From Octopus vulgaris (lineage: Eukaryota), in the NCBI GenBank assembly GCA_951406725.2, contig OX597822.1, positions 90,024,001-90,088,000 on the forward strand: a stretch of DNA of 64,000 nt, read 5' to 3'. How positions within the stretch are numbered: position 1 is the first letter of the stretch; every line of letters starts with the position of its first letter. Positions 901 through 3,900 of this stretch are shown here, in pieces. The translations under genes and the position numbers were made by a program. A model generated the notes under the pieces. That model ran no database searches and was not told where the DNA came from. It saw only the letters and a list, made by a program, of their open reading frames with translations.

Positions 901-3900
901 CTGTAAAATTCAAAAAGAAAAAATATTTGTTTTACTTCATAAACTAAAAGACAATACATCACATTTCATCATATTTCTTAGAAATATATTATTAAATATA
1001 CCTTAAAGTATTTCCATTCTTGAGCTTTTTTCTCACCATCACACGTGTGCAGGGTAGGCTTATCTCCAGTCTGGAAAATTTGAAGACACCCAGTCTCCCT
1101 CCGAAGTTCATTTTTTAAACTTAAAGAGAAAATCTACAAAAAGAATATTAAGAAGAAATATGAAATGAAAACCAATTTATAACCAATGTTTGCAGCAATC
1201 GGCCCACCCATACATGTTATATACAACAAATAACATGTTCAGCTGAAATGAGTTAAATATAAAAATGAGTTTAACAAAATATAATATGTTTCGTTTTGTT
1301 CAAAGTCACTTCAAAAACAAGAAAATTGTAGTAAAGCTGCATGACAGTGGTGTCAGACATGGCATGCAGACCATCATACAACTTGTTTGATATCGAGTTT
1401 TTATTCTTCTCTTCCATTTTATGAATTCAGTGTGCCAACTCAGCCAAAGACCTAGGCTGCGTTCCCCCAACGGGTGCTATCCGCCTTGGACGACCTGGCC
1501 CAAAACCTAGGCTCATCAAGTTGTCTTTTACGGACCCCACTGAGGCAACCTCTTACCATCTGGCCTCAGTTAAAGCTGGGCGGGAAAATCGGACCACCTT
1601 CCGAACACGCCCAGGCTTACCGTCCGATGTACGTCCGAAGCTACGTGTAGTGGCTTCCCTGAATAGGAACTCAGCTCTACAGGAAAGCTTCAGTCTTCGG
1701 AAGATGGACAAATCTGGAGATTTGTCAAGACTGCTGAAACGTGGAAGAGAGATACCAGCTGGTCTGAGTGCTCTCTACCCACCATAACTAAAAAGACTAC
1801 AGCAACTCAGGGAAACTAAACCAGAACAACCTGCCATCCTCTACACACCATCATAAACTGCGAGCAGGGTACAAATTGTTGTCCTTAAATGCTCGCAGTT
1901 TATGCAACAAAATACATTTGTTCAACGCCTACGTCAGAAGTGTTGACCCTGACTTCATCACTGTCACGGAAACATGGGCGCATTCCTTACTCTGTGATGG
2001 GGTTTTCAACATTACGGGGTACAACCTCTTCCGTAAGGACCGCACTAACCGCCGTGGTGGTGGTGTGATGGTCTACGTTCGTTCAAATTTTTTGGTAATT
2101 CCTTGTGCCGATTTGAACGAATCACAAGAAGAAGTTTTTTTCTGTGACGTGCGTATGACCATGTCAACACTCCTGCTTGGCGTTGTTTATCGTCCCCCAA
2201 GTTACCATCGGGACACACAGCTTTGCAATGTCCTCCGAGCTGCTGCCAGGAAAACAGCCACTTATGTGTTTATTGCAGGCGATTTCAATCATCCTGAGAT
2301 CGATTGGGAGACCTTCCATTGGCCACAGAGTGCAAACGATTTTGTTGAGCTTGTGCTGGACTCGAACTGGTCACAAGTAGTCACCTCTCCAACAAGAGGC
2401 GACAACACCTTGGACCTGCTCTTCACCACAACTCCTGAAGCAGTTATCAATTGCACTACGGAGGAACCTCTAGGTGACTCTGATCATGCTATGATCATCG
2501 CCAATCTGGCTCTTGCGGGCAACAAAAACCTGAACCATCTCCAATCTGCTTCCTTCGATTGGAAGAGAGCAGATTGGAACCTGTACCACACTGAACTACA
2601 GCACCCAAACTGGCGTGAATTCTACAACTCTGGAGATGTGAATACTATACTCCAGAGTATCCTGGACTCAATATGGGCAGCATGTGCAGCATCAGTGCCA
2701 CGTAAACAAAAAAAGAAGAACCGCCCCAAAAGGGCAATTTGGGAAACTTCAGCGGTCCGACTTGCCAGGAGGGAACGTCGGACTGCTGAACGGGAATACA
2801 GGTTGCATAAATCAGACACCAACAGGAAGAAGCGGAATAAATCCTCCAACCATCTCAAGCAAGTGACAAAAAAAGCAGTGCTTGAATTTGAACAGTGCAT
2901 AGCAGCCAATCCTGACAGCAAGGTTTTCTGGAAATATGTGCACTCAAAGCAGAGACCTCACTCTCCAGTGGGCCCTCTTCGCAACCCTCACACAAACCAG
3001 ATCACTGACGACCCCAAGGAATGCGCAGAACTCATTGCCGAGTGCTATGCAAACATATTCATTGTTGAAAGTCAAAATGTACCATCTTCACCATCACTAA
3101 CAGCAAACTCCATAACAACTATGGAATTTACACCTGCAATGCTGCGACGTCACCTTCAAAATAAGCGCAACTATGCCTCCCCTGGTCTCGATGGAGTTAC
3201 ATACCTGCTTCTCAAACGTGGCAGGCACTTCCTTTTACACCAGCTTTCTATTTTCTTCCAGTACTGTCTCAACAATGGTGCTACTCCGGAGCAGTGGAAA
3301 ACTGCCAGTGTCATTCCTCTGTTCAAAAAGGGTGACCGCACATCACCTGTCAACTATCGCCCAGTCAGTCTCACTAGCTGTATTGCAAAACTGATGGAAT
3401 CGTGTGTCAGAGAAACACTCTGGAACTTCTGGAGCTCTCACAGTCTCATCCGACCCTCACAATATGGATTTGTCCCTAACTCCAGCTGCAGTGACCAGCT
3501 TGTCGAGTTCCTTGAGGACATTACTCAGATTACTGACAGTGGCTCATGGGTGGATGTTGTCTACCTTGACTTTGCTAAGGCTTTCAACTCTGTGCCACAC
3601 AAAAGGCTTATGGTGAAACTCTCTGCAATGGGTGTGGGGGATGACCTTTTTAACTGGTTGAAATCCTTCATCCTCAGCCGAAAGGAGGTAGTCACAGTTC
3701 TAGGACAGCACTCTACACCATATGAGATGTCATCGGGTGTACCACAGGGATCTGTCCTTGGTCCCCTCTTGTTTGTGGCATACATTAACGACATAGATGC
3801 CAATTTAAAGAATGCCACAGTATTGAAATATGCAGACGACATCAAGCTGTACCTTGAAATCAAGAGGACAGATCCTGATGTCTACAACTCTTTCCTGCAA

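Follow-up and report, generated by a model that had tools for sequence, protein, structure and literature searches.

The retrotransposon copy found in the window (i.e., the whole 64,000-nucleotide stretch of DNA analysed here) raises the question of how its second open reading frame (ORF2) is translated. ORF2, an open frame of 949 codons at 1792 to 4641, harbors endonuclease and reverse transcriptase (RT) domains (Pfam Exo_endo_phos at aa 31-232 and RVT_1 at aa 514-739; PF03372, PF14529, PF00078). Its first in-frame ATG is codon 93 (2068), past the endonuclease motifs NARS (1888) and ETW (1969), as an earlier reading of the sequence alone (hereafter, the sequence-only reading) had reported. 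According to that reading, the upstream frame, ORF1, ends in a slippery heptamer, G_GGA_AAC, directly followed by TAA, from which a -1 slip would enter the ORF2 frame; phase, stop and target frame were confirmed in 30/30 copies of the element. ORF2 opens 18 nt 5' of the heptamer, leaving the -1 frame clear across the site. The features of the copy are as follows.

1433 to 4716, + strand: APE-type LINE copy, truncated at its 5' end, from a young and abundant family (family A); similarity to other copies begins at 1433
1433 to 1819, + strand: 3' remnant of ORF1, ending in ...TATQGN*, with a 1-nt deletion near 1700 in the window copy
1810 to 1816, + strand: slippery heptamer G_GGA_AAC in ORF1 phase (30/30 copies; also in subfamilies A2, B and B2 and in a metagenome relative, L126)
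1817 to 1819, + strand: ORF1 stop TAA, abutting the heptamer (TAA or TAG at the equivalent place in all five lineages)
1792 to 4641, + strand: ORF2 (APE endonuclease and RT), in the -1 frame, overlapping ORF1 by 28 nt; first ATG at 2068
1852 to 1904, + strand: strong RNA hairpin (15-bp stem) about 35 nt 3' of the heptamer; family A-specific, B and B2 having only a weak or displaced form and L126 a different one
1858 to 1860, + strand: ORF2-frame CTG lying 10 codons ahead of the NARS asparagine; in a rival model, a candidate for a non-AUG start (in A, A2, B and B2, not in L126)
4642 to 4716, + strand: short 3' UTR and (ATT)n tail, read from the sequence

A heptamer followed by a stop is not rare by itself in 64 kb (0.23 expected; 22/100 shuffles), so the weight of this one comes from its position, phase and conservation rather than from its rarity. 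The window LINE appeared to be of CR1/L2 type, with a relationship to either CR1 or L2. In a quick tree built without named CR1, L2, Daphne or Kiri references, families A and B and L126 formed their own long-stemmed clade. The 3' tail, at about 4690-4716, is a short tandem repeat, (ATT)n, instead of poly(A), a feature of CR1-clade LINEs. A short inverted repeat seen by eye in the 3' UTR directly 5' of this tail (4665-4690) may be, we presume, a recognition stem-loop for the RT. Elsewhere in the window, 57217-57780 on the - strand is a piece of another diverged LINE, corresponding to the C-terminal part of ORF2 (37% identity).

The same genome held 428 family A candidates; the 40 that were scored were each 99-100% identical, and 30 copies were retrieved. 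In all 30, ORF1 ended in G_GGA_AAC-UAA, ORF2 overlapped it in the -1 frame and the hairpin was present; nowhere was codon 93 preceded by an ORF2-frame ATG (0/30), and none (0/30) had ORF1 and ORF2 fused by an indel. The 1-nt deletion near 1700 that had been postulated for the window copy proved to be real, as 24/30 copies carried one extra base there. In copies with this base, ORF1 was open for 152-523 codons and ran uninterrupted into QGN*, a point that the sequence-only reading had proposed to check in genomic copies, and the whole ORF1 (392-431 aa) was recovered in 8/30. None of the sequence-level outcomes that the sequence-only reading had named as refuting the frameshift was seen: no AUG preceded the endonuclease, ORF1 reached QGN* and the heptamer was conserved. 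Conservation across these 30 copies alone says little, because family A copies are >99% identical and too young to show selection.

The whole ORF1 encodes a Cys-rich, putatively PHD-like N-terminus followed by a Gln-rich repeat. Its top three Atlas matches, at 0.87-0.88, were PHD clusters and serve as a lead only, and Pfam returned no match for a 404-aa family A ORF1. The Gln-rich repeat is a variable tandem array that separates the putative PHD-like finger from the C-terminal part (L005:526-1818), with length differences from copy to copy. No protease domain was found among the Pfam matches of the window LINE.

More diverged lineages provided a stronger comparison. Three came from the same genome, namely subfamilies A2 (94% identical to A in endonuclease amino acids), B (77%) and B2, and one from a public metagenome contig (L126, 58% identical), which grouped with A and B at full support in the quick tree. 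ORF1 ended in G_GGA_AAC and TAA or TAG in all five lineages, and the distance from the heptamer to NARS was 71, 71, 68, 71 and 68 nt in A, A2, B, B2 and L126, respectively, in frame every time. The codon providing the first G of the heptamer encoded, in the same order, Q, L, L, M and Q; the residue before the heptamer thus varies, and the base was therefore kept while the amino acid changed. Four-fold synonymous endonuclease sites were identical at only 37/76 positions between A and B and at 19/49 between A and L126. As judged from these alignments, nucleotide conservation of the heptamer is in excess of protein constraint, and conserved G-N* (the ORF1 end) or A-K-N-L residues could explain part of it.

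Individual copies, fetched from the same genome and roughly deduplicated, displayed GGGAAAC-TAA in 59/60 A-type cases (the 60 including 8 fetched by a heptamer-containing pattern) and in 45/48 B-type cases (the 48 including 20 of one chimeric extra-G lineage). The A2 copies were fetched through a heptamer-containing pattern, which is circular for the heptamer, and the A2 heptamer was also seen independently. Among B2 copies, fetched by a downstream pattern, the heptamer was kept in 10/12 of those reaching the junction, one G being lost in the other 2.

An extra G was found in 18/25 family B copies, and a hard-wired fusion was considered for them and rejected, since all of them represent a single lineage, truncated at its 5' end and forming a chimera with another LINE; because they amount to one event, they were not counted as support. 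This multi-copy chimera (L076-L094, e.g., L076 and L090) combines the 3' part of the RT gene of the other LINE, which we take to be RTE-like, with a 5'-truncated family B element carrying the extra G in the slippery run.

A third family of the same genome, about 32% identical, was examined in 20 fetched regions. All 11 copies spanning the -1 overlap (11/11) carried an in-phase G_GGU_UUA and 6/11 also an in-phase G_GGU_UUU, with a total of one off-phase heptamer. The -1 overlap in this family (L236-L253) reached about 265 nt and encompassed both in-phase heptamers.

Metagenomic relatives extended the comparison further: at least 383 stretches matched, at least 246 of these passed confirmation, and the best 80 were used, giving 64 clusters. 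The census covered 44 elements in which the ORF1 at the junction had at least 150 codons, the 20 other clusters being truncated, broken or single-ORF; L126 and L128, outside the 44, end in the heptamer and a stop as seen by eye. In this sample from the best 80 of at least 246 relatives, ORF2 was in the -1 frame relative to ORF1 in 36/44 elements, in the +1 frame in 3 and in frame in 5. The 36 -1 overlaps (best 80 of at least 246) contained 26 strict in-phase heptamers, against 4 and 4 in the other two phases and against 2.8 in-phase heptamers expected from the upstream ORF1 rate. In the same best-80 sample, strict in-phase heptamers were carried by 24/36 of the -1 elements (12/36 were without), 8 heptamers ended 0-3 nt 5' of the ORF1 stop, like that of the window copy, and no AUG preceded the endonuclease in 23/36 (an upstream AUG was present in 13/36). 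Nominal P-values (1e-11 to 1e-17) are overstated because the elements are related. In the quick tree (49 rows, rooted at the midpoint), junctions with a heptamer occurred in five or more distinct groups.

Many of the elements without a strict heptamer among the best 80 of at least 246 harbored G_GGG_GAM or G_GAA_AAC at a fixed place. In L133, L134, L136, L138, L147, L151, L157, L160, L163 and L176, the -1 overlap measured 76-115 nt, and G_GGG_GAM, G_GAA_AAC or G_GGA_AAC was located about 60-75 nt before the ORF1 stop; these fixed-place heptamers are possibly non-canonical shift sites. Another set (L130, L140, L142, L152, L156, L161, L166, L169, L170, L172, L174 and L193) displayed dual-coding overlaps of ~200-280 nt with A_AAA_AAC within the A/S-K-N-L motif of ORF1, where a shift would leave the last 55-60 ORF1 residues out of the fusion.

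Concerning the five in-frame cases among the best 80 of at least 246, L168 was a broken -1 element and the other four ended in UGA-C (ORF1 ends at L149:983, L164:1015, L182:817 and L200:1080), making them candidate readthrough fusions. UGA-C is given as a leaky stop context in the available text of PMC3542737. That all four truly in-frame relatives end in UGA-C hints that fusion is what such elements need; no stable structure was found downstream of these four stops. A PHD or GDSL-esterase domain was present in ORF1 of 10/13 relatives scanned. Scanning viral contigs for relatives yielded none, and a protein search for fused forms (21 matches, 521-1661 aa) revealed an ORF1-ORF2 fusion in no close relative; three distant protein matches had a PHD domain before the endonuclease within one ORF.

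The sequence-only reading had also proposed that RNA structure downstream of the heptamer stimulates the shift, and this part gained no support. The arms 1852-1866 and 1890-1904 do pair perfectly, as it had stated, and 1780-1930 folds at -33.6 kcal/mol (z = -4.2; 0/200 shuffles as good). As a stimulator, the hairpin was disfavored by its distance (~35 nt, with the stem beginning at +36), a weak point that the sequence-only reading had itself named, its weak or displaced form in sister families and the lack of covariation: A2 showed one uncompensated mismatch, B and B2 retained about half of the pairs, and B had a weaker stem at about +51 using the same 3' arm. Pairs changed on both sides numbered 2, matched by 143/500 shuffles, in an alignment of six rows of which three were near-identical. 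The 45 nt 3' of the heptamer in family A reached only -1.0 kcal/mol, no stable structure started at +4 to +34 nt in family A, and a stem-loop or pseudoknot 5-9 nt 3' of the heptamer was missing in A, A2 and B. L126 displayed a hairpin from about +6 (-14.9 kcal/mol, z -3.8). Among distant relatives (from the best 80 of at least 246), folds at z <= -2 followed 5/24 heptamers versus 5/96 controls, the difference over all values not being significant (Mann-Whitney p = 0.23).

The suggested pseudoknot between ACAAC and GTTGT fared likewise. The complementarity exists, but most of the 3' strand (1878-1882) is occupied by the inner extension of the hairpin in the predicted fold. As a candidate, the pseudoknot was rejected for its 5-bp AU-rich first stem, which competes with this extension and has one mismatch in B; the partial retention of its strands fits conserved N-N and L-L codons. 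Its formation is unlikely according to the modelled folds, and the proposed stimulatory structure, which would be at most family-specific, is not supported.

ORF2 could also be reached without any shift of frame, through AUG-independent termination-reinitiation as proposed for mammalian L1. Ribosomes would restart at the near-cognate CUG 1858, or at CUG 1831 aided by the downstream hairpin, and produce free ORF2p. According to the accessible sections of the L1 and SART1 reports, replacing the ORF2 AUG by any sense codon is tolerated in L1 (PMC1965478), and SART1 requires a downstream structure (PMC3708506). Also in favor of reinitiation, the strong hairpin is too distant for classical frameshift stimulation; the CTG 10 codons before NARS is common to A, A2, B and B2, and in L126 an AUG lies 2 codons ahead of the N of NARS. 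However, CUG 1858 is buried in the 5' arm of the hairpin in A and is missing from L126, while CUG 1831 was rejected as a start, reading CAG in B and B2. A UAAUG-type stop-start is not present, no ORF2-frame ATG preceding codon 93 in 30/30 copies. Reinitiation also leaves unexplained the phase-locked heptamers, the bias toward -1 and the invariant G beneath a changing amino acid; we regard it as the main rival, though an unlikely one.

Still less probable, in our assessment, is that the heptamer arises secondarily from common descent and from residues conserved in ORF1, ORF2 being translated through leaky scanning, an internal start or rare copies with fusing indels. ORF1 does conserve its terminal G-N* and an A-K-N-L motif, and an inserted G in the G run does fuse the frames in the chimeric family B lineage. 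On the other side, synonymous positions of the heptamer were fixed where neutral sites had about half diverged. Among the best 80 of at least 246 relatives, K-N-L was written as A_AAA_AAC in 12/12 cases inside overlaps but in 1/4 outside, and other K-N dipeptides in 4/63. The fused B copies are one 5'-truncated chimera without most of ORF1, and the family A copies offered no counterpart. Last, a spliced or internally initiated RNA giving ORF2 an AUG is very improbable: no supporting point was found, and assembled contigs from 8 public runs (mostly only guessed to be RNA, and in which rare isoforms could escape) showed no splice joint over the ORF1-ORF2 region and spanned the junction unspliced in several runs.

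The overlap lies in the -1 frame, has no usable AUG for ORF2 and carries a phase-locked heptamer conserved beyond synonymous drift. An ORF1-ORF2 fusion made by programmed -1 frameshifting at G_GGA_AAC, probably inefficient, is in our judgement the likely explanation. Conservation, phase and -1 bias lend strong comparative support to the Gag-Pol-like fusion of the sequence-only reading, without the stimulator it had proposed. On the frameshift model, tRNA-Gly and tRNA-Asn would slip one base back on G_GGA_AAC, and slipped ribosomes would read on from ORF1p into ORF2, giving a fusion of about 1,340 aa. Only a small share would slip, most ribosomes halting at UAA and releasing ORF1p, so that ORF1p would be plentiful and ORF2 activity scarce. 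The shift would depend on the heptamer, which is very shifty, rather than on any conserved RNA structure close by, with slow termination at the adjacent stop perhaps supplying the pause. As the heptamer has no conserved stimulator near it, the efficiency is probably low. The same device, with several heptamer types, appears to be widespread in CR1/L2-type LINEs, as far as sequence comparison can tell.

The frameshift model offers a widespread group of animal LINEs a seven-base, reporter-testable answer to the question of ORF2 translation. If true, the fused ORF1-ORF2 protein would revise the view of ribonucleoprotein assembly, the fusion tying the RT to the ORF1p particle with no protease needed. 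The relatives would then form a large natural set of -1 sites seemingly working without nearby RNA structure. Annotations that begin ORF2 at the first AUG would lose part of the endonuclease. The mechanism itself is a known type of recoding.

GGGAAAC is the slippery site of SRV-1/MPMV gag-pro. In the available text of PMC3542737, a -1 site is defined by an in-phase X_XXY_YYZ, usually with a stimulator 5-9 nt downstream, and G_GGA_AAC is ranked among the shiftiest heptamers in that of PMC5009743. The window LINE resembles viral -1 signals (retroviral gag-pro/pol, coronaviruses; same sections of PMC3542737) in its strict in-phase heptamer and in a structural ORF followed by an enzyme ORF in -1. 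It differs from them in its non-LTR LINE host, in that no protease domain was found among its Pfam matches, and in that no conserved stem-loop or pseudoknot lies at 5-9 nt.

The accessible parts of PMC3708506, PMC1965478 and PMC5009743 treat as unclear how a LINE translates ORF2 when both genes share one RNA; the last favors some unknown form of initiation for ORF2 of mammalian LINEs and mentions frameshifting within gag for HeT-A, also the only case contributed by the available text of PMC5443660. No report of -1 frameshifting in CR1/L2-type animal LINEs was found in a search of mostly non-subscription literature, and early CR1-type descriptions may have raised the idea. The CR1/L2-lineage LINEs of the Jockey superfamily share with the window LINE an APE and RT ORF2 and, putatively, a PHD-like ORF1, as well as relatives with PHD or GDSL-esterase ORF1; the available sections of PMC4120745 place these ORF1 domains in the CR1 and L2 lineages, and its main text contains "frameshift", "overlap" and "fusion" 0 times.

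One of the close precedents is in Dictyostelium, where a -1 frameshift is required for ORF2 translation in TRE5-A and TRE3-A, according to a figure legend of a review (PMC5911963); the statement is not repeated in the accessible text of PMC5006619. TRE5-A and TRE3-A are likewise APE-type non-LTR elements, with a -1 shift to ORF2 on this review statement, but belong to an amoeba, target tRNA genes, carry a zinc-finger domain in ORF2 and have another ORF1. The view that the studied LINEs use termination-reinitiation, held by the sequence-only reading, is too broad as a general rule, because the same review statement gives a -1 requirement for TRE5-A and TRE3-A. Mammalian L1 and silkworm SART1 share with the window LINE a bicistronic RNA and, probably, low-level ORF2, the ORF2 AUG being dispensable in L1 and a downstream structure contributing in SART1 (excerpts of PMC1965478 and PMC3708506, respectively). 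The ORFs of L1 do not overlap and those of SART1 meet at a UAAUG stop-start, whereas in the window LINE the two frames share a -1 overlap that contains a slippery heptamer, and an AUG is lacking.
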